A stretch of DNA of 64,000 nt, from sequence record NC_023593.1, one strand, 5' to 3'. How positions within the stretch are numbered: position 1 is the first letter of the stretch; every line of letters starts with the position of its first letter. This document shows, piece after piece, positions 7,620 to 35,875 of this stretch. The notes under the pieces were generated by a model, which was not told the DNA's origin, searched no databases, and saw only the letters and a program-made list of their open reading frames with translations. Source of the DNA: Escherichia phage KBNP1711. The position numbers and the translations under genes were made by a program.

Positions 7620-8690
7620 ATGGCAAATCCAACTTTATTTGTATCTTACGACCAGAACGGTAAAAAACTTTCCTTCGCTAACTGGATCTCTGTTCTGTCC
7701 CCGCAAGACACTCCGTTTGTGTCTATGACTGGTAAAGAGTCTATTAACCAGACTATTTTCAGCTGGCAGACCGACGCACTGGCAGCAGTTGACGCAGCTA
7801 ACGCACACATCGAAGGCTCTCGTGCTGATGATGGTGAAATGCAGCCGACTGTAATTAAATCAAACGTTACTCAGATCCTGCGTAAAGTTGTTCGTGTTTC
7901 TGATACCGCTAATACCACCGCTAACTACGGTCGTGGTCGTGAACTGATGTATCAGCTGGAGAAGAAAGGTAAAGAGATCAAGCGTGACCTCGAAAAAATC
8001 CTTCTGTCCGGTCAGGCTCGTACTGACGTACTGGCTGATCAGTATCTGACTAACTCAGCAGCTGACCCGGCTCAGGTTGGTAAGAATGACGCTCATGCAG
8101 CTCGTAAGACTGGTGCTTTCCAGTTCCTGTGTGCTCACGGTGGTCTGACTGGTGCTTCTGGTTCTCAGGTTGTTGATAAGACTAAGAACGGTCCTGCTGA
8201 CCCGGATACTGGTGCAATCACTGTTAAAGTTGCACAGAATGCTTCTAACCCGACCACTAACATTGGTTTTGATGAAGCTGATATCTTTGATATGACCCTG
8301 CAACTGTACACCGCTGGTTCTGAAGCAGATATCATCATGATCAACCCTGCTCATGCTAAGATCTTTGCTGCTCTTCAGGAAAACTCTGTTGGTTCTCGTC
8401 AGCGTATCTTTGAGAACACCAAGCAGTTCATCTACGAAGTTAATAGCATCACTGACCCGCTGGGCCAGAGCTACAAAATCATCGTTAACCGTTGGATGCC
8501 TGCTGATGCAGTATACTTCTTCCGCAGCGCTGATTGGACGCAGATGGTGCTTCGTGCACCAAAACGCACGGAATTAGCGAAGGATGGTTCTTACGAGAAG
8601 TGGATGATCGAAATGGAAGTTGGTCTGCGTCACCGCAACCCGTATGCTTCTGGCGTACTGTTCACCGCTGCGGGAAAGGCGGGAGCGTAA
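7620..8690 (+). CDS. major capsid protein (short form)
   Basis: Abundant-protein codon usage, AGGAG RBS, position after scaffold; ends 10 nt after slippery site. Confidence 0.75.
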   Translation: MANPTLFVSYDQNGKKLSFANWISVLSPQDTPFVSMTGKESINQTIFSWQTDALAAVDAANAHIEGSRADDGEMQPTVIKSNVTQILRKVVRVSDTANTTANYGRGRELMYQLEKKGKEIKRDLEKILLSGQARTDVLADQYLTNSAADPAQVGKNDAHAARKTGAFQFLCAHGGLTGASGSQVVDKTKNGPADPDTGAITVKVAQNASNPTTNIGFDEADIFDMTLQLYTAGSEADIIMINPAHAKIFAALQENSVGSRQRIFENTKQFIYEVNSITDPLGQSYKIIVNRWMPADAVYFFRSADWTQMVLRAPKRTELAKDGSYEKWMIEMEVGLRHRNPYASGVLFTAAGKAGA

Positions 8691-9217
8691 CAGTTGACAG
8701 TGTAACTGTTAGTCCTGCGTCTGTTGCTAGTCTTCAGACGGGGGCTACTCGGCAGTTCACTGCAATCGCGGAGAAAAGTGATGGTTCTACCGAAACAACT
8801 GGCTTTACTTGGTCAGTGACAGGAGGTGGTTCTATCACTCAGTCTGGTTTGTATACTGCTCCGAGTGCGGCTCAATCCACTGATGTGTCCATTACTGCAA
8901 CATTAGAAGATGTTTCTGGTACAGCAACCATTTCTGAAATTGTTGCTCCTGCTCCTACCATCGTATCTCGTGGTCCAATCGCAGATAAGGTAGGCGGTTC
9001 TACTACAGCTTTCACTACAATGTTTACCGTTACCAATTCAGCTGCTTCTAACTATACTTTCGTAGTAACTCCTCCGGGAGCTGGTTCTGTAAGTGCTGCC
9101 GGTCTTCTGACCTTGGCTGATGCTGCTTCTGGTGCTGTAAGTGTTAAAGCCACCCACTCTACGGTTTCGAGTGTTACGGCTACTTGTGAATTTACAGGTG
9201 TAACTCCAAAAGAGTAA
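7620..9217 (+). CDS. major capsid protein, extended form with C-terminal Ig-like (Big_2-like) domain via -1 frameshift
   Basis: Track ORF 8534..9217 is in the -1 frame and continuous across slippery heptamer 8672-8678. Confidence 0.6.
8672..8711 (+). promoter_or_regulatory. -1 programmed ribosomal frameshift signal
   Basis: Heptamer G_GGA_AAG, 9-nt spacer, 8-bp hairpin 'taacagtt gacagtgt aactgtta'. Confidence 0.6.
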
Positions 9218-9225
9218 AACTATAA

Positions 9226-9256
9226 AGGCTGCCTTCGGGTGGCCTTTTCTTGTTTT
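9226..9256 (+). terminator. rho-independent terminator after capsid gene
   Basis: 'aggctgcc ttcg ggtggcct' hairpin followed by T-rich run. Confidence 0.55.
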
Positions 9257-9278
9257 AAGACCTATACAAGCCAGTGTG

Positions 9279-9287
9279 TAATGTATA
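9279..9287 (+). promoter_or_regulatory. TAATGTATA motif (candidate phage promoter element)
   Basis: Exact motif 34 nt upstream of ATG 9321. Confidence 0.45.
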
Positions 9288-9320
9288 TTCTTTGTCTACA
9301 TACAACTAGGAGGACAATCT

Positions 9321-10067
9321 ATGGCGATGCCAGACGTTCAAAACCCAATTAATACCTACGGATGGCTTAAGAAGGCTGTGTCCCTCTGGGCTGACCGTGA
9401 CGACCCTGAATTTGTTAATCAAATTCCAAACTTTATTAACTTTGCAGAAAAGGAAATCTACCGTAATTTACGTATTCCTCCTCTGGAAAAAGAAGTCTAT
9501 TTAGATATTAAAGATGGTGTGGCTTTTATTCCACCAGATTACTTAGAAGCTCAGTGGATGATGAGATCTAAAGATGGTTTAATCTTCCGTGTAACCTCTC
9601 TCGAAGAAGTGGATTGGCTCAAACGTAATAACTCAGTCAACCCAACCAATTGGAATCAGGGAGAAGTTGTCTTTGCTCGTTTGGGTAGCCGGTTTATCTT
9701 CTACCCTGCAATTGAAGCAGATACTCCAGTTTACCCTGATGATGGCAGCCCTGAGATTCCAGCAGACAATGCGGTTATCCTCAGCTATTATGCTGACCCA
9801 CCAGAGTTTTGGGAAGATTCAGACACAAGTGCTATTCTTACTATCGCTCCAGAGCTTCTATTGTATTTTGCTTTACGTCATGCTTCCTTGTTTGTTCAGG
9901 ACGATAATGCAGTTCAGAAGTGGTCTGCTTTAGGTAAAGCCATTCTTGATGAAGTTGTTGAGCAGAGTAAGAAAGCAGAATACTCAGGTTCACCTTTAGT
10001 TATTCCTAACACGATTAGCCGTCTACATAGCTCTCGTGAAGTATATGGGATTCGTCGTTTTAGATAA
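9321..10067 (+). CDS. virion structural protein (possible head-tail adaptor/tail tubular protein)
   Basis: Position after capsid; strong GGAGGA RBS; no diagnostic motif. Confidence 0.4.
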   Translation: MAMPDVQNPINTYGWLKKAVSLWADRDDPEFVNQIPNFINFAEKEIYRNLRIPPLEKEVYLDIKDGVAFIPPDYLEAQWMMRSKDGLIFRVTSLEEVDWLKRNNSVNPTNWNQGEVVFARLGSRFIFYPAIEADTPVYPDDGSPEIPADNAVILSYYADPPEFWEDSDTSAILTIAPELLLYFALRHASLFVQDDNAVQKWSALGKAILDEVVEQSKKAEYSGSPLVIPNTISRLHSSREVYGIRRFR

Positions 10068-10076
10068 GGAGAGAAT

Positions 10077-12857
10077 ATGATCGTTTACAATAACCAAGCA
10101 CCTTCGGCTGTTAACAACGTTGGTCAGTTTGGTGCAACAGAAGGCTCTATCGGAGCCTATAAACAAGCTGCTGAATACGCAGCTGATGCTAAATATTGGG
10201 CACTATTAGCTGAGTCTAAATTTGGTACAGTTGATGACTTGATTGCTCAGGTTGAAATTCTGTACAAGCAAGGTGTTCTATTAAAAGAAGATATTGAAGA
10301 CTTAAAACAAGACTTCATTGCACAAGATGCTCGTTTGATGAACCTCATTGCTCAGACAAATGCAGCAGTTGCTGATGCTAATAACGCAGTTGCTCTGATT
10401 AATCAGAAGCTTGTAGAAGTTCAACGCCAGCTGGATATTCTGTTGGGTATGACAGTCACCGTTACAACCCTCCCTCCAGGTTCTGAGGCCACTGGTTCAT
10501 TTAACAACCAGACCGGTGAAATCAAACTTGGTATTCCTGAAGGTGAGAAAGGTGCAGATGGTTCTGTTACTGACCTATCTACTGCTCCTACCGGTACACC
10601 AGAATTGGGGGACATTGGTTTCTATGTTGACAAAGATGATAATACTGTTCACAAAACAACTCTCGAAGATATTGCCAACTTGATACCATCTGTTCGTTCT
10701 ATTTCTGTTAACGGAGGCCCTACACTTGACGGTGAAGTATCTCTTACGATCAACAAAGAAACTGTAGGTCTTGGTAATGTTTTGAACGTGGCTCAGTATA
10801 GTCGCCAAGAGATTAACGATAAGTTTGATAAAACAACTAAAACATACCAATCGAAAGCTGAAGCTGATTTAGATGCTCAATACCGACAGGTAGGGGAAAA
10901 GGTTTTGGTGTGGGACTCAACGAAGTATGAATTCTATACTGTTGCAGCGGATAAGACCCTCACTCCAGTTAAAACAGAAGGCCGTATCCTAACTGTTAAC
11001 TCTCGTGCTCCTGATTCAACAGGTAACATCGACATTACCATTCCAACAGGAAACCCATCTTTATATCTAGGTGAGATGGTGATGTTCCCTTATGACCCAG
11101 CTAAAACTGTTTCATACCCGGGAGTTCTTCCTGCGGACGGTCGTCTTGTTCCGAAAGCAAACGCAGTAGACCTTGGACCCTCTTTAGTCAGTGGTCAATT
11201 GCCTGTAGTTTCTGAAACAGAGTGGCAAGCTGGTGCTCGTCAATATTTTTCTTGGGGTAAATTGGCTGATGGTATTACTGATGCTGATTCTTCTAATTTT
11301 ATTAACATAAGACTTCCTGATTGGACAGGTGGCGAAGCTATTCGCTCCCCTGACTCTGATAAAGATGCTAACTACAAAGGTCGTGTTTTGTCTCAGGTTC
11401 CTTATATTGTTACAGTTAACGGTAAAGCTCCTGATGACGCTAACGGGAATGTGATTCTAACAGCAGCTAATGTTGGGGCAGCATCTTCAGGTGCTAACTC
11501 TGATATCACATCTCTTAGTGGACTGACTACTCCTCTCTCTGTTGCTCAGGGTGGTACGGGTGTCACCGATATCGGCTCGCTTCGTAGAGCGGCGTTGGTT
11601 CAGGGGGTTCTGTGTAATGATCAGATTAGCCCTCAATCTTATAACAGTTATAGATCTCCTAACGGGGAGTATGCTTTCAAAGTGGATAACTCGGGACTTG
11701 TTGCTTCTATTAATGCAGGGACAGAAGATGTTGTACCTTTTGCTATAGAATCAGGCGGTACGGGAGCAACCACATTAAATGATGCTCGAATCAATTTAAA
11801 TTTGGATAGGTTTTTACAGCCTAGCAATGAAACCACAGTTATGGCTCCTAGTAAATCTTCATATTTAACAATTTCAGACACCGCTTGGGGGGCTTATAGT
11901 TCTGATAACTTAGCATGGAGGGCTTTAGGGATAGGACAAGGTGGTACAGGAGCGACCACTGAGGTTGCTGCTCGTGTCAATCTGAAGGTGGATAAACTTG
12001 TTCAAAGTTCAACAGACACAAAACTTCTGGACGGTTCTGGAGAACACACCTTCTTTATTACAGATGCAGATTGGGGGTATTTCAATAACTCTGATTCTTC
12101 TAGAATAGCTTTGCCAGTAATAAGCGGTGGTACGGGGGGTAAAACACCAGCAGAAGGTTCTGAAAACTTAGGGGCAATGCATTATCAGTACGGTTCCTCA
12201 GTCTACTACGGTGGTGGTGATTTACCAACTGGTATTGGATTCTACAGCGGGGACACGTCACCTTTTCCGGGAGGTAATGGGGCACCCTTCACATATGCGG
12301 AGATAATGACTATTGCTGAAGGTGGTCGTGGAGGTAACTGGTCCCAAATAGGGTTCTCTACTATCACATATGAAGCCCCTCGCTACAGACAAAGGACTAG
12401 TGACCCTTCTTTAATCACAAACTGGCGTGACTTCTTAGTAAGAGATTTGAACACTACCGTAGATGTTAATGGTTTTGTTAAGATTGCATCACCTATAGTC
12501 AAACTAAAATCTGACGGGTCTTCTGAAGTCAATGACCAAGCCCAAGGAGTAACAACCGAAAGATTAGATGTTGGTGTTTATAAGATCTCTGGAGTTCTAG
12601 GTTTTAACTCAGACCCTTCTTGGGGAGGTAATGGTGGCGGTTTCTCTATCCCTCAAAACTCTAATGGTTTGCCTTTGTTATGGGTGGATTACGAAGTTGA
12701 TGAAGAAGGTGATATTACTCTGAAAACTTACCATCGAACTCACGAGGGAGTTCCTTCTTTTGCAAGTAATGTAATAGAAGGTGTGGTGGATGGAGAACCT
12801 ATTGACATTCCAGAAGGACGTTGGGTAGATCTTCGTGTAGAGATGCCAGCCGAGTAA
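10077..12857 (+). CDS. tail fibre protein with phage-fibre repeats
   Basis: Four repeats of '(S/Q)GGTG(A/V)T...AR(I/V)NL' and a collagen-like 'GEKGADG' segment. Confidence 0.7.
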   Translation: MIVYNNQAPSAVNNVGQFGATEGSIGAYKQAAEYAADAKYWALLAESKFGTVDDLIAQVEILYKQGVLLKEDIEDLKQDFIAQDARLMNLIAQTNAAVADANNAVALINQKLVEVQRQLDILLGMTVTVTTLPPGSEATGSFNNQTGEIKLGIPEGEKGADGSVTDLSTAPTGTPELGDIGFYVDKDDNTVHKTTLEDIANLIPSVRSISVNGGPTLDGEVSLTINKETVGLGNVLNVAQYSRQEINDKFDKTTKTYQSKAEADLDAQYRQVGEKVLVWDSTKYEFYTVAADKTLTPVKTEGRILTVNSRAPDSTGNIDITIPTGNPSLYLGEMVMFPYDPAKTVSYPGVLPADGRLVPKANAVDLGPSLVSGQLPVVSETEWQAGARQYFSWGKLADGITDADSSNFINIRLPDWTGGEAIRSPDSDKDANYKGRVLSQVPYIVTVNGKAPDDANGNVILTAANVGAASSGANSDITSLSGLTTPLSVAQGGTGVTDIGSLRRAALVQGVLCNDQISPQSYNSYRSPNGEYAFKVDNSGLVASINAGTEDVVPFAIESGGTGATTLNDARINLNLDRFLQPSNETTVMAPSKSSYLTISDTAWGAYSSDNLAWRALGIGQGGTGATTEVAARVNLKVDKLVQSSTDTKLLDGSGEHTFFITDADWGYFNNSDSSRIALPVISGGTGGKTPAEGSENLGAMHYQYGSSVYYGGGDLPTGIGFYSGDTSPFPGGNGAPFTYAEIMTIAEGGRGGNWSQIGFSTITYEAPRYRQRTSDPSLITNWRDFLVRDLNTTVDVNGFVKIASPIVKLKSDGSSEVNDQAQGVTTERLDVGVYKISGVLGFNSDPSWGGNGGGFSIPQNSNGLPLLWVDYEVDEEGDITLKTYHRTHEGVPSFASNVIEGVVDGEPIDIPEGRWVDLRVEMPAE

Positions 12858-12866
12858 ATAATATAT

Positions 12867-12882
12867 GCTCCCTTCGGGGAGC
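12867..12882 (+). other. intergenic hairpin (possible attenuator/terminator)
   Basis: 'gctccc ttcg gggagc' between the two fibre genes; weak T-tract. Confidence 0.3.
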
Positions 12883-12897
12883 TTTAAGGAGATTTTA

Positions 12898-15024
12898 ATG
12901 TCTAGAGAATTAATGCCCAAATCTGGCATAATGATGCCTCATGTTGTAATTAACCGAGATGCTGCGGTAGTGGGTGTTTCCACTATTGACGGTATTGCTG
13001 GTGCTGTAGATTTAACAGGAAAGTATCTACAGAAAACTGATGCTGCTGATACATACCTAACTAAAACAGATGGAGCTACTAAAACTTTTGTAACTGATGC
13101 AATAGGCCCTATCATGTCTGGTGCTTTGTTTAAAGACGACCCTGTTGTTGCAAACGATGTAGCTTTCCGTTCAGGTGGGGCCAATGGTGTAGAATCTGTT
13201 GATATGATCAAAGTCACTCCGGAGAATACTATCAAGTTAGGTAGTTATGCTTCTTCCGTTCAGGGTGTAGAGATTCACTCAGCTGGTCGTCTTCAGGTTG
13301 TTGATCAAAACGACAGTGGTATAGAAACTAAATACCCTGTGTACTCTAAGCGCTATCGTCCTGAGATTGAAGATTTACCTTTTGCTGCAATTGGTTCTTA
13401 TGTTAAGGATTCAAAAGGTCGTACTGTTGGTGTAACCCGTACCGGTATCAACTCTGATATCAAACAACTTACACAGAAAGTCACTTTTACTCAACCTGTA
13501 ACCGTAGCCGATGCTGTAGGCGATTATGATGCAGTGACACTGAGACAGCTTAAGAATCAGGGTGGTGGTTCTGGTGGTCCTACCATGAGTGGTATTTCTA
13601 ACTTTGGTATTGGTGATTTTCACCTACGTGACAGTCGTGCTTTCATCCCCGCTTTTGAGGTAGTCTCTGACGGGCAGCTTTTGAATCGCGCTGACTACCC
13701 TGATTTATGGGCTTATGCTCAACTCTTAACTCCAATCAGTGACTCCCTTTGGTTAGAAGACCCTTACCAGAGAGGTAGGTATTCCACAGGGGACGGCTCC
13801 ACCACTTTCCGTGTTCCAGACCGAAACGGTATTCAGCCTAATTCCCTTCCGGCTCTTTATGGACGAGGTGATGGTGGTGCTTCCGCAGCTAATGGTCAAG
13901 TGTTTGATTCTGCAGCCCCTGACATTATTGGCTCTGTTGCAGCATATTCTGCTGGAACTTATGCCCAGCTTTTTGGAGTAGCTGCCAATGCATTTGAATC
14001 TAGCAATGCCTTCTTTCCTCAAGGTACAGGGGATACAATACCTCCGGGGTCTGGGCCAGTCGATGGTCGATATAACACTATTGAGTTTAAGGCTTCCAGA
14101 TATAATGGAGTTTATGGTCGTAGTAACACAGAAATCATGGGTCGTAACTTTGTCGGTGTGTGGACTATCCGTGCTCATGGTGGATTCACTGCTGCTAATA
14201 CTTCTTGGTCTGTTATTAACAGTGACACTGTTTTGCCAAACACTGGAACTTCTATTAACGGTGGCTCTATTATATCTGAGTACAAAGTGGGCACAAATGT
14301 TGAAGGTTCTGCTTCGTTCAAAATGGCCGGTGCAGTTGGGGCTGCCTATTCTGCTCGTATTACAGTTTCCAATAAAACTTCAGGATCTAGTAAAACTTTT
14401 GATTTTTTAAGCGATGGAGACCTAAGCGTTCCAGGAAGCTTGCTTACTCTAGAAGGCAATGTCGACGCTAAAAGTCAACTGATATCTCGAGGTGGTCGGA
14501 TAGTTCTTGTAGGTAATAATGATCAAAGCCAATCTTTTATTGAATTTAACAGCAACAATGGTTATACTGTGTACGGAAGATTTTACTCAGAACGTGATGG
14601 TGACATTACCCTATCAACATCTACAGCCGGAGCTAATCAAAAATATTTTCAATTTCTCAAGGATGGAAGTGCTACAAGCTCCGGAGGGTGGATCAATTCT
14701 TCTGATATCAGAATTAAAGAGAATATCGAACCTATTAAAAACCCACTAGACAAAATGAGGAACATTAAAGGTGTTTCTTGGAAACTTAAAAATGGAGGGA
14801 AGGTAGGATTTGGTTTTATAGCGCAAGACGTCGAAGTAGATTTCCCTGATGCGATTTCTGTTTCGGGTGATATGGAGATGGCAGACGGGTCTTTAGTGAA
14901 GGATGTGAAGTCTGTTAATACCTATGGTGTTGCAGCTGCTTTACACCACGAAGCTATTCTTGAACTTATGAAGCAGGTTGAAGACCTCAAGAAAGAGGTG
15001 TCAGAGCTTAAGTCTAGTAAGTAA
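12898..15024 (+). CDS. tail fibre/tailspike with C-terminal intramolecular chaperone (peptidase S74-like) domain
   Basis: C-terminal 'NSSDIRIKENIEPI...GFIAQDVE' motif; AAGGAG RBS before ATG 12898 (track ORF starts 12865). Confidence 0.7.
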   Translation: MSRELMPKSGIMMPHVVINRDAAVVGVSTIDGIAGAVDLTGKYLQKTDAADTYLTKTDGATKTFVTDAIGPIMSGALFKDDPVVANDVAFRSGGANGVESVDMIKVTPENTIKLGSYASSVQGVEIHSAGRLQVVDQNDSGIETKYPVYSKRYRPEIEDLPFAAIGSYVKDSKGRTVGVTRTGINSDIKQLTQKVTFTQPVTVADAVGDYDAVTLRQLKNQGGGSGGPTMSGISNFGIGDFHLRDSRAFIPAFEVVSDGQLLNRADYPDLWAYAQLLTPISDSLWLEDPYQRGRYSTGDGSTTFRVPDRNGIQPNSLPALYGRGDGGASAANGQVFDSAAPDIIGSVAAYSAGTYAQLFGVAANAFESSNAFFPQGTGDTIPPGSGPVDGRYNTIEFKASRYNGVYGRSNTEIMGRNFVGVWTIRAHGGFTAANTSWSVINSDTVLPNTGTSINGGSIISEYKVGTNVEGSASFKMAGAVGAAYSARITVSNKTSGSSKTFDFLSDGDLSVPGSLLTLEGNVDAKSQLISRGGRIVLVGNNDQSQSFIEFNSNNGYTVYGRFYSERDGDITLSTSTAGANQKYFQFLKDGSATSSGGWINSSDIRIKENIEPIKNPLDKMRNIKGVSWKLKNGGKVGFGFIAQDVEVDFPDAISVSGDMEMADGSLVKDVKSVNTYGVAAALHHEAILELMKQVEDLKKEVSELKSSK

Positions 15025-15030
15025 TCTAGT

Positions 15031-15050
15031 AGCCCCTTCGGGGGCTTTAG
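15031..15050 (+). terminator. terminator-like hairpin
   Basis: 'agcccc ttcg ggggct' followed by TTT. Confidence 0.45.
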
Positions 15051-15120
15051 TAGTGAGTATGTTCAAGAAGTAATGAAACTACTATATCACAAAAGGAATA
15101 CACATAGGAGATACGAAGAG

Positions 15121-15339
15121 ATGAAAATGATGAAACAAATCAGTTATGGGTTAGCTTGTGTTGCTACCGGTTTTGCTGTGTCAGTGGCTGTTCCTGTTAA
15201 CGCTGTGCATCCTCTGGTAACACAACCTGCACCTGTTGAGAAATTGAGTGCATCATGCAAGCAGCGTACAATTCAAAATAATCTTGTGGTTATTTGTCCG
15301 GACTCTGATTCTAGTGCTCTGAGAAATATGCTTCAGTAA
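15121..15339 (+). CDS. small membrane protein, possible holin
   Basis: One N-terminal hydrophobic segment; directly upstream of lysozyme; AGGAG RBS. Confidence 0.3.
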   Translation: MKMMKQISYGLACVATGFAVSVAVPVNAVHPLVTQPAPVEKLSASCKQRTIQNNLVVICPDSDSSALRNMLQ

Positions 15340-15369
15340 TTCAGGGCTGACTAGAAAGGGAGGTGAAAA

Positions 15370-15861
15370 ATGGATAATGTCGCATTGCCACCGATACAAC
15401 TGAGCTTAAGCCCAGAAGGGATGGAATTCATCATGAAGCATGAAGGTATGAGAACTCGTGCTTACCAAGATTCCGCAGGTATCTGGACGATATGTGTTGG
15501 GGCTACGCGCGATATGAATGGGTATCCAGTTAGACAGGGATTAACGTATTCTATAGAGGATTGTCTAGCTCTGCTAGATAGAGACACACAAGACTCTGTT
15601 CGTGCCACTCAGAAAAATATTAGGGTTCCTTTGTTAACCCACGAGTTTGATGCTCTCACCTCTTTCAACTTCAACGTTGGTGGTGGAGCTTTATCAACTT
15701 CTAAACTTAGGAAAGTTATTAACGGGGATGTGAAGGGTGATGTTTATTCTGAGTTCCTCCGTTGGGATAAAATTACAGTTAAAGGTAAGAAGATTAGTAG
15801 TCCGGGGTTGAAGAATCGTAGAACTGCTGAAGCTGATCTTTACACTGAAGGTAAATACTAA
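15370..15861 (+). CDS. lysozyme (T4 lysozyme-like glycoside hydrolase)
   Basis: 'EGMRTRAYQDSAGIWTICVGAT' matches the phage lysozyme catalytic E/D/T region. Confidence 0.75.
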   Translation: MDNVALPPIQLSLSPEGMEFIMKHEGMRTRAYQDSAGIWTICVGATRDMNGYPVRQGLTYSIEDCLALLDRDTQDSVRATQKNIRVPLLTHEFDALTSFNFNVGGGALSTSKLRKVINGDVKGDVYSEFLRWDKITVKGKKISSPGLKNRRTAEADLYTEGKY

Positions 15862-15872
15862 AAGGAGTTGTC

Positions 15873-16676
15873 ATGGCAGTAGAAACTAATGCTAACACAA
15901 TTAATGACCTCAACCCCCTGTACCCTCGTGACAGGGATTATCTTTACGAAGGGGCGGCTCAGATTCGCCTTGTTAAACAAGTATTGCAGAATACTTTTCC
16001 AAACGTAACAGAGCCAGTTCAGTTGGACTCAGATTCTCTCAATATTCTGGCTAGCAAAGTTACCTTTACTGGTGACTCTATGGATGTTGGTGGGTTGATG
16101 ATCAAGAATGCCACTCCGGGCACAGGTGATAGAGATGTTGTTACTAAAGGCCAGATGGAAGCTTTCATGCAGAACTGGATGGCTAACAAAGTATTCAGAA
16201 TTGGTTCTTACTATATCACTGAAGAAGATATTAACCCTGGTGATAGTTCTTCTCTTGGTTTTGGCTCTTGGGCTAAAGTGACTGGCGTTATCATGGGTTC
16301 TGGTGTAGTAAACCCTGATGGTTCTGTTCCTAATGCTCAGCGTGTTGAATTCCAAGCAGGTGGTACAGGTGGTCGTGTGTTTAACACTGTCCGTTCTGAT
16401 AACCTACCTCTTGTAACTATTAACGGTTCAAGCTTCTCAGTGTCTAGTAACACACACAGTCATAACATGGTGTTTGGTCGTGGTGACGCAAGTGGTCATA
16501 ACAGTTCCCCTAACTGGTATAGTCCGGGTGGTGGTTATAATCAGAGAACTGAAAATGATACACACTCTCACACAATCTCTGGTTCTGTATCTTTTGGTCG
16601 TGATGATGTTTCTCGTCAACCAATCAATACTTTACCACCTTTCCGATCTGCACACATCTGGAGACGTATTAGCTAA
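15873..16676 (+). CDS. tail fibre-like protein with HxH motifs
   Basis: Repeated 'THSH' motifs as in fibre tips; tail-gene context. Confidence 0.45.
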   Translation: MAVETNANTINDLNPLYPRDRDYLYEGAAQIRLVKQVLQNTFPNVTEPVQLDSDSLNILASKVTFTGDSMDVGGLMIKNATPGTGDRDVVTKGQMEAFMQNWMANKVFRIGSYYITEEDINPGDSSSLGFGSWAKVTGVIMGSGVVNPDGSVPNAQRVEFQAGGTGGRVFNTVRSDNLPLVTINGSSFSVSSNTHSHNMVFGRGDASGHNSSPNWYSPGGGYNQRTENDTHSHTISGSVSFGRDDVSRQPINTLPPFRSAHIWRRIS

Positions 16677-16685: not shown

Positions 16686-19600
16686 ATGGCGTTATACCCT
16701 ATAAAATCACTTGGGGCTATCGGTGTTATCGCTGATCAGGCACCAACTGATTTAGCACCTAACGCTTTCACCAACGCTATGAACGCTCGGTTTGTTGAGC
16801 AGAGAGTTTTTAAGACGGGGGGCAATGCCCCTCTTTCTTACGTGGAAGAAGACAAAGATCTGACTCCACTCTCTTTTGTCTCCATGCCTTTCGATTATTA
16901 TAGCGCAGGAAATAGCTTCCTTGTAGTAGGTACAGATAAGAAGTTATATAAACTGACAGATGAAAGCTTAACCGATATCAGTCGTAAAGTTGCTACGGTA
17001 ACTAAGAAAGCTTCTGCTATCATAAAGATCTATCCAGTGGTCTCAAGGATTGTTCCTAAAGAGAGCACTGTCACAATGAACTTTAACCAGACAAAAGAGT
17101 TAGAAGTTCAGGTTTTTCCAGAGGATGCTAATAATGCCAATCTGACTTGGGAAGTAAGTAACCCTTCTTATGCCAGTATTGCAGTAAATCCTACAGATTC
17201 TAAAAAAGCCACCCTTACTACGTTGTCTACAGAAGGAACACTGTCCATTACTGTTTCCACTGAAGATGAATCTGTGACAGCTCAAATCTCCGTTAACATT
17301 GTTGATGGGGATACGGGTATCTTCTTGAGTCAAGACACAATCACAATTCGAAGAGGTGGTACAACAACTCTTACTGCTATCTCAGGTAAGACTCCTATCA
17401 CTTGGATTAGTAGCAATGGTGGTGCTTTGTCTGTGACACCTAATGCCAATACACTAACTACTGTTCTCAATGCCATGGGAGAAGGAACTTTTACTGTTAC
17501 AGCTGATAATGGCTCTAAGTCTGCTACCTGTACAGTTAATGTGATACCTCAGATTGATTCTATTTCTCTGAGTCAGACAGATGTTCAGATGGATAGAGGG
17601 ACTCAGTATGTTCTAACTGCAACAGTCAATCCTGCTGATGCTCCTAATAAAGCAATCACTTGGACTTCCTCTAATCCTAATATTGCTACAGTATCAGGGA
17701 CAAGTACAGAGGCTACAATTACTGGACTTCTGGCTGGGTTTACAGAGATTACAGCAGTAACAGAGGAAGGTAGTCGTTCAGCTGTTTGTACTGTTCGTGT
17801 CAACCTAGCAGGTAGAATGCTAAATACCAGAAGTCTAGCGATGGCTGCTAGTGCACCTCTAGTAGAAGAGTTCAAAGAGGAAGAAGAACCAGTTGTACAG
17901 AATGAAGAAGTTGTTTACTTCATGTCTGACTCTATGGGAATTGATACCTCTGGCATGGCTGAAGGCAACAACTTCTTTGACTACTCTAACGTATTCGATA
18001 TGGAAGGTTTTGCTCGTGCTGCGGAGAACTCAAGAGCTGTTCCTCTGACAAATGTGACATTAGATATTGTTGAAGCTTCTCTAGATGTAGGTGAAGAGAT
18101 TGTCATAACTGCTACAGCAGCTCCAGAAGGAGATTACTCTTATCAGTGGGTTGTTGATAAAAGTGGTTATGTTTCTACTACCTCTACAACTGGTAGGTCT
18201 TTGAAACTTACAGCTGTTCGTAAAGGCGAGATTAAAGTTACATGTACGGCGAGTCAGATGACTCAAAGAGATTACGATGCTTTTGATGATTACCCTTGGT
18301 ATCATGCAGTAATCTCTAACTGTGCAGTAGCGACAACTCACTATGAAACTCCTCAGGTTAAAGAATTCGAATCTGAATACTTTACAGACCTTCCGGGATG
18401 GGGTGAACAGACAGTTGTTGATGGTGACGGAAACCCTTCTGTTCGTAAATTTAACTGGAAGTGCGAAAGGGTTAGAGCTTTTAACAACAGGCTATTTGCT
18501 CTGAATATGAGAGAATCTAATGCCTCTGGTGTTACCACTCATTATCCTTTACGTCTTCGCTGGTCTAACTTTGCGAATGAGAACAAGGCTCCTACTTTGT
18601 GGGATGATTATGCTTACGACCGACTGACAACTTCTGATCTTTCAGCGAACATTGTTGGACAGACTGAAGCTCTTGAGAATGGTTATGCAGGATATATTGA
18701 TCTGGCTGACTCTAATGGTAGTTTGATTGATGTTCTCCCTTTGAAAGATTACTTATTTGTTTACACCGAGTTTGAAACCTACATTGGTTCTCCTACTAAC
18801 AACACATACCAGCCTCTGATGTTTAAGAAGCTGTTTAATGATTCAGGTATTCTTGCTCCTGAGTGTGTGGTTGAAGTAGAGGGTGGTCACTTTGTTGTAA
18901 CCCAGAACGATGTGATTCTTCATAACGGTGCATCTAAGAAATCTATTGCATCTAACCGTGTCAAGAACATGCTCATTAATGAAGTGTGTTTGGTAAACCC
19001 TCTAGCGACTAGAGTTCACTTGCACCAAGATAAGAAAGAGGTTTGGGTCATGTATGTTGGGCCGGGAGAGCCGAAAGAAAGTTTTGCTTGTACAAAGGCT
19101 GCGGTCTGGAATTACGAGTTTGACACTTGGTCTTTCCGTACTATCCCTTATGCTCAGTGTATTGGTCTTGTAGATCCTCCTGTTCTCGAAAGAGGTCCAG
19201 TGTGGACTGACTTCCAAACTATCACTTGGGATGACCCTGCTATTGATAAGCTGGTGTGGAGAAAGGATGCAACTAACTTCCGTCAGAGAATTACTATCGT
19301 AGGCTCTTTCTTAAGGGGTTTCTATCAAGTAGATGTTGGTGCTTTGGATTATTTCTATGACAGAGCGAATGACAAAATAATAGAGCGTCCTCTGGAAATG
19401 AGGTTAGAGAGAACGGGGATTGATTTTGATAACGTTACTAACGAATGGAATCAAAAACATATCAACCGATTCAGACCTCAGACTACAGGTTCTGGTACGT
19501 ATATCTTTGAAGCTGGAGGTAGTCAATTCTCTAATGAGTATGGTCACAACCACACAACTAAGAGTTATACGATTGGAGTTGATAGGCACGTAGCTGTGAG

Positions 19601-19706
19601 ACTGAACCATCCATACCTATTCTATAATGTTATAGATAATGATGTTAACAGTAACGCAGCCATAAATGGGCTGACAATAGAGTTTAATGTTGGCGGTCGA
19701 AGATAA
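16686..19706 (+). CDS. large virion protein with three Ig-like (Big_2-like) domains
   Basis: Three ~80-aa repeats with 'TLT...V.P..A....W.SSN...A.V' pattern. Confidence 0.6.
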   Translation: MALYPIKSLGAIGVIADQAPTDLAPNAFTNAMNARFVEQRVFKTGGNAPLSYVEEDKDLTPLSFVSMPFDYYSAGNSFLVVGTDKKLYKLTDESLTDISRKVATVTKKASAIIKIYPVVSRIVPKESTVTMNFNQTKELEVQVFPEDANNANLTWEVSNPSYASIAVNPTDSKKATLTTLSTEGTLSITVSTEDESVTAQISVNIVDGDTGIFLSQDTITIRRGGTTTLTAISGKTPITWISSNGGALSVTPNANTLTTVLNAMGEGTFTVTADNGSKSATCTVNVIPQIDSISLSQTDVQMDRGTQYVLTATVNPADAPNKAITWTSSNPNIATVSGTSTEATITGLLAGFTEITAVTEEGSRSAVCTVRVNLAGRMLNTRSLAMAASAPLVEEFKEEEEPVVQNEEVVYFMSDSMGIDTSGMAEGNNFFDYSNVFDMEGFARAAENSRAVPLTNVTLDIVEASLDVGEEIVITATAAPEGDYSYQWVVDKSGYVSTTSTTGRSLKLTAVRKGEIKVTCTASQMTQRDYDAFDDYPWYHAVISNCAVATTHYETPQVKEFESEYFTDLPGWGEQTVVDGDGNPSVRKFNWKCERVRAFNNRLFALNMRESNASGVTTHYPLRLRWSNFANENKAPTLWDDYAYDRLTTSDLSANIVGQTEALENGYAGYIDLADSNGSLIDVLPLKDYLFVYTEFETYIGSPTNNTYQPLMFKKLFNDSGILAPECVVEVEGGHFVVTQNDVILHNGASKKSIASNRVKNMLINEVCLVNPLATRVHLHQDKKEVWVMYVGPGEPKESFACTKAAVWNYEFDTWSFRTIPYAQCIGLVDPPVLERGPVWTDFQTITWDDPAIDKLVWRKDATNFRQRITIVGSFLRGFYQVDVGALDYFYDRANDKIIERPLEMRLERTGIDFDNVTNEWNQKHINRFRPQTTGSGTYIFEAGGSQFSNEYGHNHTTKSYTIGVDRHVAVRLNHPYLFYNVIDNDVNSNAAINGLTIEFNVGGRR

Positions 19707-19740: not shown

Positions 19741-19757
19741 AAACTTTGGAGGTACTT

Positions 19758-20726
19758 ATGGGTGCTGGAGGTTTTCGTAAGAATACTGGACGCAACAACA
19801 CCACACTTCCCTATAATGTTGGGTTTCTTAATAGGGTAGAGGATACAGAAACATATAACACCGCTGTCTATGATGAATTACAGAAAGTCAGTACAGCAAC
19901 TAACCAAATGTTCCAAGCAATCGACGAGATTCATGATGAGATTGATGTTCGTATCAAAGCTCTTAATGCTATGAACCTCCAGTTTGATGAGCTTGAGAAT
20001 AGAATTACTACAGAGATTGAAACAGCTATTGCAGATATTATCACACAGATGGGTAATTTATCTACTGAAGATATTTGGGATAATTCAACCGTTCCTCCTA
20101 CTAAACTGGATGGTACGGTAGCTGGTATTAAAACTAGCATTGAAGGGAATGATGTAAAGATTCAAACTGTTCAGGGGATTGTTAATGAGCAGGGAGAGGA
20201 GATTGCTTTAGTTCAAACAGAACTTTCTAACATTAATAGCAGTCTTTCTCAGTATATGAAGCTCACGGACTACGAAGCTACTTGGGGTGTTAATTCTAAT
20301 GTTAATGGTCGATACGCTGGAGTTAAATTAACTAACAACGGAACGAACAGTGCTTTCCAAGTGACTGCTCAGAAGTTTATTGTCGGTGATGGTAGCTCTG
20401 GTAACACCCCTTTCGTCTTTGAGAATGGTAGGGCTAGAATGGAGTTCGCTGATATAAAGAATGTCAATATCACAACTGCCATGATTGCTAATGCTCGTAT
20501 TCAGTTTGCTCAGATTGATAACGTGTGGATTACTGACGGTCAGATTGCTAACCTTACTGCTAACAAGATTACTGCTGGTTCTATGAGTGGTTCTAATTGG
20601 AGACTTACAGTAGGTGGGGATTTTGTGATGGGTGGTACAGGTGGTTCTCAATTGTGGATGAATGGTAATAGAATAGATTTTTATGATGGGAGTGGGACTC
20701 TTCGCATAAGAATAGGGAGTTGGTAA
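19758..20726 (+). CDS. virion structural protein
   Basis: GGAGG RBS before ATG 19758 (track ORF starts 19746); structural context. Confidence 0.45.
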   Translation: MGAGGFRKNTGRNNTTLPYNVGFLNRVEDTETYNTAVYDELQKVSTATNQMFQAIDEIHDEIDVRIKALNAMNLQFDELENRITTEIETAIADIITQMGNLSTEDIWDNSTVPPTKLDGTVAGIKTSIEGNDVKIQTVQGIVNEQGEEIALVQTELSNINSSLSQYMKLTDYEATWGVNSNVNGRYAGVKLTNNGTNSAFQVTAQKFIVGDGSSGNTPFVFENGRARMEFADIKNVNITTAMIANARIQFAQIDNVWITDGQIANLTANKITAGSMSGSNWRLTVGGDFVMGGTGGSQLWMNGNRIDFYDGSGTLRIRIGSW

Positions 20727-31840: not shown

Positions 31841-32642
31841 GCCATGACCACTCGAAGAGGTCTTCTGGTGTTTGACCTACGAATAGGAGACGAGCATTTT
31901 CAAGCATCTTTTCTTCCCATTCTGTATCAAACTTCTTATAATATTCCATTCGCACTATATGATAAAGAGTCCACTTATCATTTACACCTTGTAAAAGGTT
32001 GATAGCGGCTTTCTTTCCAACCCCTTGACGACGGAGTTGTAACTTACCTCCCCACATAACTTCCTCACGTTCACCACAACCGGGAATGTTATCTGTTCCA
32101 TCACCAATGAGCATTTGATAAAAGAAGTTTTGCCAAGCAACCTCATCTGATACATAGTGAGGAGGAACCTCTTTCTGTCTTTCTCCACATGCCCACCGAT
32201 AGTGCCATCCGGGAGTTATCAATAAGTCTTTGTCTCGTGTACAGATGATAGTGTTCTTGTCAGTTCGCTGTCTTTCTGCTAATGCATCATCAGCTTCTCT
32301 TCCATAAACATCTACATACTCGTAATTGTTTTTAATGTAGTCACCAACGTTCTGCCAGTGGAAAGGTCTTTCTCCCGGAGGTCGGTTGGCTTTGTATCCT
32401 TGCTGCTTTGCTACATCAAAACGGAAATTACCGCCTTCGCTGAAGTAGAAGATTGTCTTTCGACAGCCAGCGCGAGCAATGATTGTATCAAGTTTGTTTT
32501 GAAGTCGTTCAATTAGAAACCCATAATCTACTGGTGTACGTCCTGTATCCAGAAAAGGATGCTCCTGAGTCAGAGCACCCACTTCGTATCGGAGAACATC
32601 AGCATCCACTAGAGCTACTTCAGGATACTTAACGTCTTCCAT
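31803..32642 (-). CDS. 5'-3' exonuclease / flap endonuclease
   Basis: 'LVDADVL', 'GREADDALA', 'TRDKDLL', 'IGDGTDNIPG' acidic motifs of FEN/PIN nucleases. Confidence 0.6.
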   Translation of the reverse strand: MEDVKYPEVALVDADVLRYEVGALTQEHPFLDTGRTPVDYGFLIERLQNKLDTIIARAGCRKTIFYFSEGGNFRFDVAKQQGYKANRPPGERPFHWQNVGDYIKNNYEYVDVYGREADDALAERQRTDKNTIICTRDKDLLITPGWHYRWACGERQKEVPPHYVSDEVAWQNFFYQMLIGDGTDNIPGCGEREEVMWGGKLQLRRQGVGKKAAINLLQGVNDKWTLYHIVRMEYYKKFDTEWEEKMLENARLLFVGQTPEDLFEWSWLDKIWNKDIDNG

Positions 32643-32643
32643 A

Positions 32644-33180
32644 TCACTCCCCTAAAAGTTTACGAACTTCTTTCTTGAATGTTTCATACTCTTCAGGGTA
32701 TTCAAACCCACACTCTAACATTGCATAGTGAACAACCTTAAGCAAGTCTTGAACCTTGTTCTTATCTTTGTGTCGATAAGCATACTTGATCATGTTACAT
32801 TGCTGGAAATTAAGCTGAGGGTTAGCTGCATAGAATTCAATAGGTTGAATCTTCTTGGAGTCAGGGTCATAATGAGCACCGCCAACCATTACATCTAGTG
32901 CTGGACTTCTTTGGCTAGTCTTCTCAGTTGTATTCTTAAAACTGACCACAGGAACAGAAGAGTAAACTATATACTCTTCCCCTACTGGTGGTTTTACTCT
33001 TAGTCCACGCATGGCATATTCAATCTTTATGTCAGCGGAACCTGAAGCGACCTCTTCAATAGATTTTCGATAGCTGTCAATAACTGCCCTTAGCATAGAG
33101 ATTGTTTTGGTCATATCTTTTACTTTCTCATTCAGTACAACAATCTCTGATTCTTTGAAATCGAACAAATTCATTTCCAC
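32644..33180 (-). CDS. DUF3310-like phage protein
   Basis: 'QPIEF...NMIKYAYRHKDK' resembles the DUF3310 signature (recalled). Confidence 0.3.
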   Translation of the reverse strand: MEMNLFDFKESEIVVLNEKVKDMTKTISMLRAVIDSYRKSIEEVASGSADIKIEYAMRGLRVKPPVGEEYIVYSSVPVVSFKNTTEKTSQRSPALDVMVGGAHYDPDSKKIQPIEFYAANPQLNFQQCNMIKYAYRHKDKNKVQDLLKVVHYAMLECGFEYPEEYETFKKEVRKLLGE

Positions 33181-33563
33181 TCTCCAATGATTTCCATATC
33201 AAATTTATCTCCTTTCTTCGTAAGGAGTATTGCCGGTTTATCTTTACTTTTCATATACTCAAACATGTGCAGAGACCCTCTTGACTCTCCATCCCAGAAG
33301 ACTATTGCTGAGTCAGCATACTCTCCCATGTCTACGTTTCGAAGGATACCAGCTTTCTTTCCTAAGGTTGTCCAAGAAGGGATAAACCTTTTAACCCCAA
33401 GGCCGTTGTGCTTAGCAACAATCTCTCCGTGAGAGTCTGGCCCTGTTGCTCCTCCTGATACAACTTCAGTGAAGAGCTTAGGTATTTCTTTGGGGAGTAA
33501 ATCCCACATCTGAATAAAAGAAGGCCAGTCAATAGACCGGCTTCCTGCTATAATCACTTTCAT
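33171..33563 (-). CDS. SLOG/DUF2493-like Rossmann protein
   Basis: 'VIIAGSR...SGGATGPD' N-terminal pattern (recalled). Confidence 0.3.
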   Translation of the reverse strand: MKVIIAGSRSIDWPSFIQMWDLLPKEIPKLFTEVVSGGATGPDSHGEIVAKHNGLGVKRFIPSWTTLGKKAGILRNVDMGEYADSAIVFWDGESRGSLHMFEYMKSKDKPAILLTKKGDKFDMEIIGEWK

Positions 33564-33564
33564 A

Positions 33565-34206
33565 TTAAGACCCTTGGAATTCTTCTTTGTCGAAGTGCTT
33601 CTCTACCACATACTCATACAGATCTTTATACTCTGCATAACGACGGTAGAATGTACCGTGTGAGATGCCTAATTCTTTCTGAATGGAATCGTGAGGGATA
33701 CCTAAGAAGAGCATTGAGAACATGCTTGCGAGCTTCTGTGTGTCCATTGTATCACTCAAATCTTGGAAGAAGTAGAAGATACGAGATTCCATGAAAGGGT
33801 CCCCAACTGAATCATGCTTATTAACTGCATATTCCAGAGGACCTTCTGAGTAAATGTCAGGGTTGTTAAACATATCTGCTTCTGGAATAGCATAGATACG
33901 TCGATCACCAACTGTCTGTCGATTAGAACGGATAGACCAGATGATATTCTTCACACGATAGGTCATGTGCTCAATCTCTACCTCACCTTCTAGTAGAAGC
34001 TCTTCTTGCTTGGAATAGATGAAACGCCAAGCATTAAGCAACACCTCTTGAGCTACATCCTCTGCTTCATGATAGTCACGAATGTCGTACATAAAGAATT
34101 TGTGAACCACTTTCCAGTTCACCTTATAGAACTCATCGAAGGTTGGGAAGTATTTGATTGGAATACCGTGAATACGATACCGAGTAGGTGTTGTTTTCTT
34201 AGCCAC
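33565..34206 (-). CDS. ECF-type sigma factor-like protein
   Basis: Region 2-like '[16 protein letters not shown]'; region 4-like HTH '[17 protein letters not shown]'. Confidence 0.5.
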
Positions 34207-34236
34207 AAGTTATCCTTAACTTTGTTGGTTTTAAAT

Positions 34237-34446
34237 TTATACGCTGATCAAGTAAATAGCCGTTTCGGGGTTTGGTGTGTGTTGTTGTGGTGTTCCGAGG
34301 ATACGAATCCACTCATCGTTTTCTGGTTCGTAATACAACCAAGCATCTGTGAATTTGAAAGTTTTTCCAAACACTTTGTTATCGTGTTCCCAAATTACGT
34401 GAACATTTCGAGTTCCTTGTGGTAGAACTGATTGCGCTCTAATCAT
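34237..34446 (-). CDS. hypothetical small protein
   Basis: ORF track only. Confidence 0.3.
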   Translation of the reverse strand: MIRAQSVLPQGTRNVHVIWEHDNKVFGKTFKFTDAWLYYEPENDEWIRILGTPQQHTPNPETAIYLISV

Positions 34447-34706
34447 TGGATACCTCTTTCTTTCAGAGCCTCTATTAACCCGTTGTGGTTAGCAGCACAC
34501 TCTGTGTATTGGTCTTGATACCACTCTAGTGTTGTTGATAGTGCAACACCTTGTGGACCTTCTAGCATCGGTAAATCTACCCTACACTCAGCTTTTAGGT
34601 TTGTTGGTAAGGGCATTAATTGCCTGCTGTTGTCGCTCATTGAACAACTTGACATACTCATCACTAGCGCAAACATTATAAAAAACTGGCTTAGTCTTTT
34701 CATAGT
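34443..34706 (-). CDS. lipoprotein, o-spanin-like
   Basis: Signal peptide 'MKRLSQFFIMFALVMSMSSC', Pro-rich mature part; start embedded in the upstream gene. Confidence 0.35.
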   Translation of the reverse strand, partial: TMKRLSQFFIMFALVMSMSSCSMSDNSRQLMPLPTNLKAECRVDLPMLEGPQGVALSTTLEWYQDQYTECAANHNGLIEALKERGIQ

Positions 34707-34938
34707 GCATCTCTTTGTAAACTGTCTCAGTGTTCTTCTTCCAGTCTGATAGACCATTGAGAACTCTCATAGCAACCTCATCAGCTGCTTTGTTTCTCTC
34801 TATCTCTAATTCTTGCTGATGTTTCTCTTTGTCCAGATTGTTACTATCTGTTTGGTATTCGTTAAACTTCATACCACCAAAGAACACAAGAGCTGAAAAG
34901 ACGATGAACCCTAAGTTATCGCTTAACGTGTTTTGCAT
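34588..34938 (-). CDS. membrane-anchored coiled-coil protein, i-spanin-like
   Basis: N-terminal TM 'LGFIVFSALVFFGG' then charged helical region; overlaps the lipoprotein gene out of frame. Confidence 0.35.
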   Translation of the reverse strand: MQNTLSDNLGFIVFSALVFFGGMKFNEYQTDSNNLDKEKHQQELEIERNKAADEVAMRVLNGLSDWKKNTETVYKEMHYEKTKPVFYNVCASDEYVKLFNERQQQAINALTNKPKS

Positions 34939-34949
34939 ATTATCTCCAA

Positions 34950-34975
34950 CGAAAAAAGCCACCCGAAGGTGGCTA
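34950..34975 (-). terminator. rho-independent terminator (- strand)
   Basis: 'agccacc cgaa ggtggct' hairpin with U-run on the - strand. Confidence 0.5.
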
Positions 34976-34996
34976 AACTATTACAAGGAGAGATAC

Positions 34997-35737: not shown

Positions 35738-35794
35738 ATTTTAATTTCCTTATTTAATTTAAGATTGTTGCTCACTTTGAGCGGTTATGTATAG

Positions 35795-35803
35795 TATACA
35801 TTA
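35795..35803 (-). promoter_or_regulatory. TAATGTATA motif (- strand)
   Basis: + strand 'tatacatta'; 58 nt upstream of SSB-like gene start. Confidence 0.4.
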
Positions 35804-35866
35804 CACCTATACCGATAAGAGTGCTATGTAGTATAAGCATCAGTGGTAGTAGATATTGACTACTAG

Positions 35867-35875
35867 TAATGTATA
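35867..35875 (+). promoter_or_regulatory. TAATGTATA motif (+ strand, faces away from flanking genes)
   Basis: Exact motif in the 414-bp intergenic region. Confidence 0.3.

Follow-up and report, generated by a model that had tools for sequence, protein, structure and literature searches.

Two consecutive genes of the Escherichia phage KBNP1711, referred to here as A and B, probably encode the two subunits of one branched long tail fibre, in which B is docked on a middle module of A (residues 246-467) and is matured by an S74-type chaperone. The genes were analysed in a window of 64,000 nucleotides of the sequence record NC_023593.1, and the parts of the fibre region given with coordinates below are located on its plus strand. 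Gene A, the anchoring subunit (10077..12857; 926 aa, with the ORF confirmed at these coordinates), has as its orthologues gp12 of SU10, gp12 of EP335 and gp14 of phiEco32, while gene B, the receptor-binding subunit (12898..15024; 708 aa), corresponds to gp13 of SU10, gp13 of EP335 and gp15 of phiEco32. That both are tail-fibre genes, as the first-pass annotation had proposed, was borne out by the Pfam, PDB and PHROG matches. A matches the SU10 gp12 structure PDB 7z47_D (E = 0), with about 90% identity over residues 1-521 and the C-terminal 137 aa alignable too, and is assigned to PHROG 10305 (tail fiber); B matches PHROG 6921 (E = 0), is 100% identical to the annotated KBNP1711 tail fiber protein P0058 of 708 aa, and shares 72% identity with SU10 gp13 over residues 1-507.

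KBNP1711 is an E. coli podophage of the Gordonclarkvirinae (SU10/EP335 group), with a backbone 96% identical to that of EP335, and its gene order (adaptor, A, B, holin, lysozyme, short fibre, nozzle) is the order of SU10 and EP335. The adaptor protein, the docking platform of the long fibres, is encoded directly upstream of A (9321..10067; Pfam SU10_adaptor PF24175, E 1.3e-29), and the short tail fibre gene (15873..16676; Pfam Gp10_C, E 3.3e-9) equals SU10 gp16 in position and length (267 aa). In SU10, the trimers of gp12 and gp13 form one long tail fibre, with gp12 attached to the adaptor dodecamer, which has six sites for such fibres (PMC9509320). As in the fibre of Kuravirus SU10 (PDB 7z47, 7z4a, 7z4b, 7z4f) and in that of EP335, the PF25670 end is found on A and the S74 end on B. 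Apart from the fibre region, a -1 frameshift was observed at the capsid gene, which looked new and has already been published for this phage group.

The attachment of A to the virion may be read from its N-terminus. Over residues 1-120, A shows 85-95% identity with SU10 gp12, as expected of an adaptor-binding N-terminus of the gp12 type, and over residues 1-480 the identity amounts to 60-95% per 40-residue window, mostly 80-95%; the putative adaptor-binding segment (residues 1-90; 10077..10346) corresponds to the first 90 residues of SU10 gp12, which were resolved in the adaptor-bound state (PMC9509320). The N-terminal part of B is also well conserved, with 70-100% identity to SU10 gp13 and EP335 gp13 per 40-residue window over residues 1-320 (mostly 75-100%). 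Its first residues (1-45/53), which belong to the conserved docking segment 1-60 (12898..13077), are 64-75% identical, mostly about 73%, to the proteins of the LtfB type in T5-like phages, DT57C ltfB among them. By this alignment, the first 45-60 aa of B are of the LtfB type, and B is without a virion-docking N-terminus of its own. In T5-like phages, LtfB attaches through LtfA (PMC4728585), and a module common to these LtfA proteins is found in the middle of A (residues 246-467; 10812..11477), where it matches residues 230-448 of DT57C LtfA (8hqz_d) with E 3e-44 and is the candidate docking site for B. Thus, an LtfA-type module in A and an LtfB-type N-terminus in B are both present. A second collar-like domain inside A was also considered and dropped, as A(301-470), when compared directly with B(205-401), gave no significant match (E 0.15).

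The distribution of these modules among phages favours the branched arrangement. Of the phage records, 240 contain the A(246-467) module (Escherichia 111, Salmonella 95, Shigella 5, Klebsiella 3) and 234 contain B(1-60) (Escherichia 110, Salmonella 91, Shigella 5, Klebsiella 3), the spread over the taxa being almost equal. For the C-terminal beta-sandwich knob of A, PF25670 (Phage_tail_C_2; residues 792-926; 12450..12854), a candidate free tip, the count is 325, and the taxa are distributed otherwise (Klebsiella 60, Acinetobacter 51, Proteus 18), so that B(1-60) appears to co-occur with A(246-467) and not with PF25670, in a correlation drawn from the record counts and sampled rows. In the Salmonella phage S131, the LtfA carrying the A-type module ends in its own S74 chaperone and thus has a free C-terminal tip, and its LtfB has the B-type N-terminus. 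The branched LtfA/LtfB fibres of DT57C and DT571/2 (also S131) share with the KBNP1711 fibre this LtfA module, the LtfB N-terminus, and, with B, the chaperone ends of the S74 type. In DT57C, genetics show that both subunits recognise different O-antigens, and the branching of phiEco32 gp14/gp15 was cited in the same work from a cryo-EM personal communication (PMC4728585). However, LtfA is attached to a siphovirus tail via LtfC with its T5-type N-terminus and has its own S74-matured tip, whereas A has the podovirus adaptor attachment and ends in the PF25670 knob, with no chaperone.

The first-pass annotation had read A and B as two distinct fibre sets. Such independent sets, each attached to the virion and each with its own receptor specificity, are highly improbable, even though the two consecutive genes are each annotated as a tail fibre in all relatives and the abstract of Witte et al. 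speaks of 'two distinct tail fibers' (PMC8217332). The SU10 virion leaves no place for them, since the adaptor sites are taken by gp12, the six nozzle sites hold the short-fibre gp16, and a third kind of site is absent (PMC9509320); on the same structural grounds A and B are assigned to one fibre, and the second set is that of the short fibre gene at 15873..16676. Furthermore, the N-terminus of B is similar to that of LtfB, which needs LtfA for its attachment (PMC4728585), and the Wifcevirus homologues of B, which attach directly (BASEL paper), have another N-terminus and match B only from residue 205.

A serial fibre, with A proximal and B distal, joined end to end at one elbow by PF25670 and with only B contacting the receptors, is a possible but doubtful alternative. 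It agrees with the SU10 fibre of 700 Å as seen in negative stain, which was described as serial, with one elbow (300 + 400 Å) and no branch mentioned, and in which gp12 was named proximal and gp13 distal (PMC9509320), the naming adopted also in the YF01 and BASEL papers; PF25670 is, moreover, found in A of every Gordonclarkvirinae member examined. Only 90 residues of SU10 gp12 were resolved, and neither a serial nor a branched model was seen directly (PMC9509320). Against a joint at PF25670, the N-terminus of B is about 70% conserved in the T5-like phages whose LtfA, without PF25670, ends in a self-cleaving chaperone; in three or more unrelated phage groups (HK446, K7_rec23, KarlBarth), PF25670 terminates fibres that have no partner resembling B; and the identity of PF25670 between clades is about 50% versus 82-92% for B(1-40), which fits poorly with a conserved joint. 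The branched fibre with B docked on the middle module of A is the reading followed below.

In the branched fibre, the remainder of A beyond the docking module would be one of the arms, with a shaft of variable length built of four repeat units with GGTG cores (residues 484-737; 11526..12287). The cores are located at residues 492, 560, 622 and 684, with the spacings of 68, 62 and 62 aa, and four or more GGTG were found in 0 of 20,000 residue shuffles of A. The four repeats of the pattern GGTG(A/V)T...AR.NL that had been claimed for A were thus present as cores, while the full literal pattern fits only repeats 2 and 3 (GGTGATTLNDARINL and GGTGATTEVAARVNL), which represent a true tandem duplication of 62 aa (21/55 identical, z = 16); repeat 1 (GGTGVTDIGSLRRAAL) and repeat 4 (GGTGGKTPAEGSENLG) have the core alone in common. 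Over residues 470-800 of A, no match to a Pfam repeat family (such as Phage_fiber_2) was obtained even at E <= 5, so that the 'phage-fibre repeats' of the first-pass annotation did not hold as a curated family. The repeats are nonetheless real, and they are also present in other fibre PHROGs and in LtfB of S131. The relatives of A contain from 2 to 5 cores at lengths of 786, 852 or 926 aa, with four cores in KBNP1711 (926 aa) and EP335 and two in SU10 (786 aa), and the identity of A to its SU10 counterpart drops to 0-40% across the repeat region.

The other arm would be formed by B, in which two binding modules are followed by the chaperone. The first of them, a putatively T4 gp12/tail-collar-like module designated RBD1 (residues 205-440; 13510..14217), matches residues 559-870 of DT57C LtfA with E about 1e-86 (3.4e-94 for the whole chain; B residues 214-522 are homologous to this part of LtfA), while Pfam Collar PF07484 scored 17-18.6 bits against B, under the cut-off of 24; the homology to the proteins in which such a module has been described is strong, and an HHpred analysis of EP335 gp13 was reported in PMC8217332. 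From residue 205, B matches the fibres of Wifcevirus, T5-like/Tequintavirus, Gordonclarkvirinae and other phages, and it falls into the same homologous set as the 'T-shaped' dual-RBD fibres of the BASEL paper (Bas87 Gp10, Bas32 Gp24, Bas99 Gp114), the T shape being the description of the homologues in that paper. The variable loops of RBD1 (residues 321-400) are 28-62% identical to the relatives and unlike those of all five relatives compared. The second, distal variable module RBD2 (residues 441-601; 14218..14700), which would become the mature C-terminus after the cleavage, is 85-95% identical to EcoN5 and 8-40% identical to EP335, SU10, NJ01 and EC.W14-3, and B residues 441-680 as a whole are EcoN5-like rather than EP335-like (18-62% identical to EP335). 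A T5-like (pb1-like) fold of the RBD2-type module was claimed in the BASEL paper. The AF2 structure prediction covered B as a single chain; its pLDDT of 65 and pTM of 0.29 were too poor for a fold assignment of the binding modules, the Foldseek search of the PDB with this model gave no pb1 match, and the chaperone was the only part with a meaningful match.

The C-terminal residues 602-708 of B (14701..15021) form an S74 intramolecular chaperone, as had been proposed with a profile match as the test: Peptidase_S74 PF13884 matches the whole of B with E 9e-14 (51.9 bits) and its C-terminal 208 aa with E 1.6e-14 (54.4 bits), at a cut-off of 22. In agreement with this, B matches the chaperone of S16 gp37 (6f45_A; phmmer E 1.4e-7) and MyRF (7dc3), and the modelled chaperone region (pLDDT 81-90, with a terminal helix of 33 residues) was superposed by Foldseek on the MyRF ICA domain 7dc3 with E 4e-5, probability 1.00 and TM 0.62-0.65 on the target. 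B is like the known chaperones of this type (K1F endosialidase, T5 pb1, S16 gp37, phi29 gp12, MyRF ICA) in the C-terminal position, in the Ser...Lys(+5) dyad of the motif S-D-x-R-x-K, and in the fold, where a mixed alpha/beta region precedes a long C-terminal helix, with no notable difference from them.

The segment GWINSSDIRIKENIE, which is located at 14686-14730, contains the putative dyad, with the codons of Ser601 at 14698-14700, Ser602 at 14701-14703, Asp603 at 14704-14706 and Lys607 at 14716-14718. Self-cleavage by Ser602/Lys607 is inferred from the invariance of both residues across an alignment of 41 homologues (45-94% identity) and from the mass spectrometry of EP335 gp13, the autoproteolysis of which was placed 'after Ser621' by ESI-MS (PMC8217332), this residue being aligned with Ser602 of B. 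For T5 pb1, with the dyad Ser1264/Lys1269, the cut was placed N-terminal to the catalytic Ser, at Thr1263-Ser1264 (PMC4690869). Because these two placements differ, the cut in B is fixed only to Ser601|Ser602 or Ser602|Asp603. The cleavage predicted earlier at the Ser-Asp of SSDIR, near nt 14700, appears right to within one residue by the alignment with Ser621.

The start of B at 12898 was also confirmed. The mechanical ORF begins at 12865, and this ATG was rejected, as it is without a Shine-Dalgarno sequence and abuts a conserved hairpin, while the true ATG at 12898 has AAGGAG 6 nt ahead of it (12886-12891) and agrees with all annotations, the equivalent start being annotated in EP335, EcoN5, SU10, EC.W14-3 and NJ01. 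Six phages were compared over the spacer between A and B, which measures 40 nt in all of them and differs little in sequence; it includes, directly upstream of the AAGGAG, the hairpin GCTCCC-TTCG-GGGAGC (12867..12882), the stem and loop of which are unchanged in five of them, while in EC.W14-3 a single A of the 3' arm is replaced by G and the pair is kept as G-U. A scan of 9200-15500 for promoters and terminators gave counts not above those of shuffled sequence.

Taken as a mechanism, A would trimerise and, by its first approximately 90 residues, anchor the six fibres of each virion on the adaptor, the step shown in SU10, while B would trimerise and enter the fibre via its conserved N-terminal 45-60 residues, the dock for which would be the middle module 246-467 of A and not its C-terminus, giving a branched fibre. 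One arm would consist of the GGTG-repeat shaft, which varies in length, with the PF25670 knob at its end, and the other would be B with its T4-gp12-like binding module and the variable distal module. The last 107 residues of B would serve as a template on which the distal module folds into a trimer, and would afterwards remove themselves via Ser602/Lys607, leaving a mature B that ends at residue 601 or 602. Such a fibre would be the first to bind the cell, in a reversible manner and most likely at an O-antigen, as for EP335 gp13, and the short fibres and nozzle would act after it. The variable segments of B are unlike those of EP335, and therefore the receptor specificity of KBNP1711 probably differs from the O157/O26 of EP335.

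The dual receptor specificity claimed earlier stood in part: more than one specificity is plausible, because the relatives of B are predicted with two receptor-binding domains (BASEL paper, structure predictions) and A ends in PF25670, the tip domain of single-protein fibres elsewhere, but not by way of two fibre sets. With somewhat less confidence than even, it is suggested that the branched fibre offers three binding surfaces, namely the knob of A and the two modules of B, with the number of repeat copies (2 to 5) setting the arm length.

The two-subunit fibre of this known phage is ordinary, and the current understanding is unchanged by it. The cut site, the variable segments and the subunit joint tell engineers which fibre pieces can be swapped. 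The point of some value is the choice between a branched fibre with a third binding tip and a serial one. If the branched fibre is true, the proximal/distal picture derived from SU10 would need revising, and A(246-467) together with B(1-60) would represent a portable docking joint, used by podoviruses and T5-like siphoviruses alike.

Escherichia phage KBNP1711 has a recorded tail fiber protein identical to the 708-aa product of gene B, the second subunit of the long tail fibre, and EP335 shows 96% identity to the rest of the window; on these two grounds the window can be assigned to a known Gordonclarkvirinae (phiEco32/SU10-like) podophage of E. coli. The tail-gene order is that of SU10 and EP335, namely the adaptor (9321..10067, PF24175), gene A, encoding the anchoring subunit of the long fibre (10077..12857, plus strand, an ORF of 926 aa), gene B on the same strand, the holin (likely start 15121, since the PHROG 11161 match begins at residue 17 of an 88-aa ORF), the lysozyme (15370..15861, PF00959), the short tail fibre (15873..16676), a nozzle protein with Big_2 domains (16686..19706) and the tail needle (19746..20726). 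The lysis genes (15121-15861) lie within the tail-gene block, flanked by the long-fibre and short-fibre genes, a layout common to the relatives. The mechanical ORF of B opens at 12865, and the functional start is placed at 12898 from the Shine-Dalgarno sequence (AAGGAG at 12886-12891, with the ATG 6 nt further on) and from the starts annotated identically in all six related phages, in which the 40-nt spacer between A and B is also kept. Directly 5' of this ribosome-binding site, the spacer holds a hairpin, GCTCCC-TTCG-GGGAGC (12867-12882), whose stem and loop are unchanged in five of the six phages, the sole change (EC.W14-3) retaining the pair as G-U. RNA stability, translational coupling or processing may be its function; a consensus scan found a terminator-like site there on the minus strand only, the plus strand having just three T after the stem.

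The first-pass annotation had taken A and B for two independent fibre sets, which proved wrong. In SU10, each of the six long fibres combines one trimer of gp12 with one of gp13, the N-terminus of gp12 anchoring it to the adaptor, and six short fibres (gp16) are carried on the nozzle (PMC9509320). A aligns with SU10 gp12 (PDB 7z47_D, E = 0) with about 90% identity over residues 1-521, and the last 137 residues are also aligned; it is the orthologue of gp12, as B is of gp13 of SU10 and EP335. A and B are therefore the two subunits of a single fibre, the second set being the short fibre.

The two ORFs, the GGTG repeats of A and the S74-type end of B, all pointed out in the first-pass annotation, were confirmed. 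The GGTG cores of A lie at residues 492, 560, 622 and 684, and at least four were obtained in none of 20000 shuffles. Units 2 and 3 are a genuine tandem duplication of 62 aa (z = 16) and the only ones to match the literal pattern proposed earlier, GGTG(A/V)T...AR.NL; units 1 and 4 have the core alone in common with the others, and no Pfam repeat family was found over the repeats. The number of cores differs among the relatives: two in SU10 (A of 786 aa), five in NJ01 and EC.W14-3 (852 aa), and four in EP335 and EcoN5 (926 aa). The C-terminus of A (12450-12854) matches PF25670 (E 1.3e-56). This domain is also found in a 196-aa Dhillonvirus protein and in many short proteins (147-255 aa) in records of Citrobacter, Serratia, Yersinia and Enterobacter; their sources call them phage tail or tail fiber proteins, and many are partial entries. 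This distribution suggests a small, exchangeable fibre-tip cassette.

B matches Peptidase_S74 (E 9e-14) and contains GWINSSDIRIKENIE at 14686-14730. Across 41 aligned homologues (45-94% identical), Ser602 and Lys607 do not vary and Asp603 and Arg605 are nearly invariant, the same Ser/Lys(+5) arrangement as Ser1264/Lys1269 of T5 pb1 (PMC4690869). By sequence, the chaperone domain matches both the MyRF ICA domain and the S16 gp37 chaperone (6f45_A, E 1.4e-7). Within the AF2 model this domain is the confidently predicted region (pLDDT 81-90), and its fold matches MyRF ICA (Foldseek E 4e-5, TM 0.65 on target). The same motif begins at Ser621 in EP335 gp13, which aligns with Ser602, and the ESI-MS mass of that protein fits autoproteolysis after Ser621 (Witte et al., PMC8217332). 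The Ser-Asp site (14703|14704), correctly located in the first pass, is therefore experimentally supported in the closest characterised orthologue. Because the T5 cut is placed one residue earlier, N-terminal to the serine (PMC4690869), cleavage of B is predicted after residue 601 or 602.

How the two subunits are joined divides the literature: in the SU10 paper the fibre is drawn as serial, a proximal and a distal part with a single elbow, gp12 being resolved for 90 residues only (PMC9509320), whereas a branched fibre has been described by Golomidova et al. (PMC4728585) and Witte et al. (PMC8217332), with DT57C genetics and an unpublished phiEco32 reconstruction cited in support. The question tested was which part of A co-occurs with the docking end of B. 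Phage records containing the middle module, A(246-467), numbered 240 (Escherichia 111, Salmonella 95, Shigella 5, Klebsiella 3) and those containing B(1-60) 234 (110, 91, 5 and 3, respectively), with many sampled accessions in common; PF25670 gave 325 records with another breakdown (Klebsiella 60, Acinetobacter 51, Proteus 18). PF25670 ends the fibres of HK446, Klebsiella phage K7_rec23 and Dhillonvirus KarlBarth, which lack both the A module and a downstream B-like gene. In Salmonella phage S131, LtfB bears the N-terminus of B, and LtfA combines the A module with a terminal S74 chaperone of its own, which makes the C-terminus of LtfA a free tip. Across hosts with entirely different C-termini in their A-type proteins, the N-terminus of B keeps about 70% identity, which points to the middle module of A as most likely its conserved partner. 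Docking there would leave the C-terminal half of A as a second arm; as inferred from this co-occurrence, a branched fibre is the more probable arrangement and the serial fibre drawn for SU10 the less probable.

Elsewhere in the window, the capsid gene (7620..8690) carries a slippery heptamer, G_GGA_AAG (8672-8678), in the X_XXY_YYZ register of its frame, 10 nt 5' of the stop. The -1 frame after it (8672-9217) is open for 179 aa, comprising a GGSV linker and an Ig-like (Big_2) domain; this frame lacks a start codon of its own in the vicinity. The identical heptamer and register occur in EP335 and SU10; the -1 frame of the SU10 record is interrupted after 11 codons, and no Ig protein was observed on the SU10 capsid (PMC9509320). 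For this phage group, a capsid isoform arising by frameshift has been published before (PMC7881722, PMC9965538). Directly 3' of the Ig-like ORF, ahead of the adaptor and fibre genes, is a terminator-like hairpin and T-run (9224-9247), at the position of an annotated terminator in the SU10 record. The cumulative GC skew reaches its maximum near 32 kb and then declines (about 32000-36000), suggesting that transcription switches direction near 32 kb, with the late structural genes on the plus strand before the switch.

Everything noticed in the first pass had been described: an annotation exists for B, the SU10 structure paper assigns the fibre, cleavage of the chaperone has been measured in EP335, and the BASEL paper discusses the two-domain architecture of relatives of B. 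Sliding identity in 40-residue windows gave a mosaic picture of both subunits. Residues 1-480 of A are conserved (60-95% identity to SU10, EC.W14-3 and NJ01, the three less closely related phages, mostly 80-95% to residue 440), residues 481-800 are highly variable, and residues 801-926 show about 50% identity between clades. B is conserved over residues 1-320 and EP335-like over 1-280; residues 321-400 are variable in each comparison (28-62%), these loops resembling none of the five relatives compared; residues 441-680 are 85-98% identical to EcoN5 versus 18-62% to EP335, and the final 28 are again 100% EP335-like. B is a recombinant, as seen over 13861-15021 (residues 322-708). More than one specificity is plausible, on other grounds than those first proposed, and the specificity of EP335 (O157/O26) should not be assumed for B.
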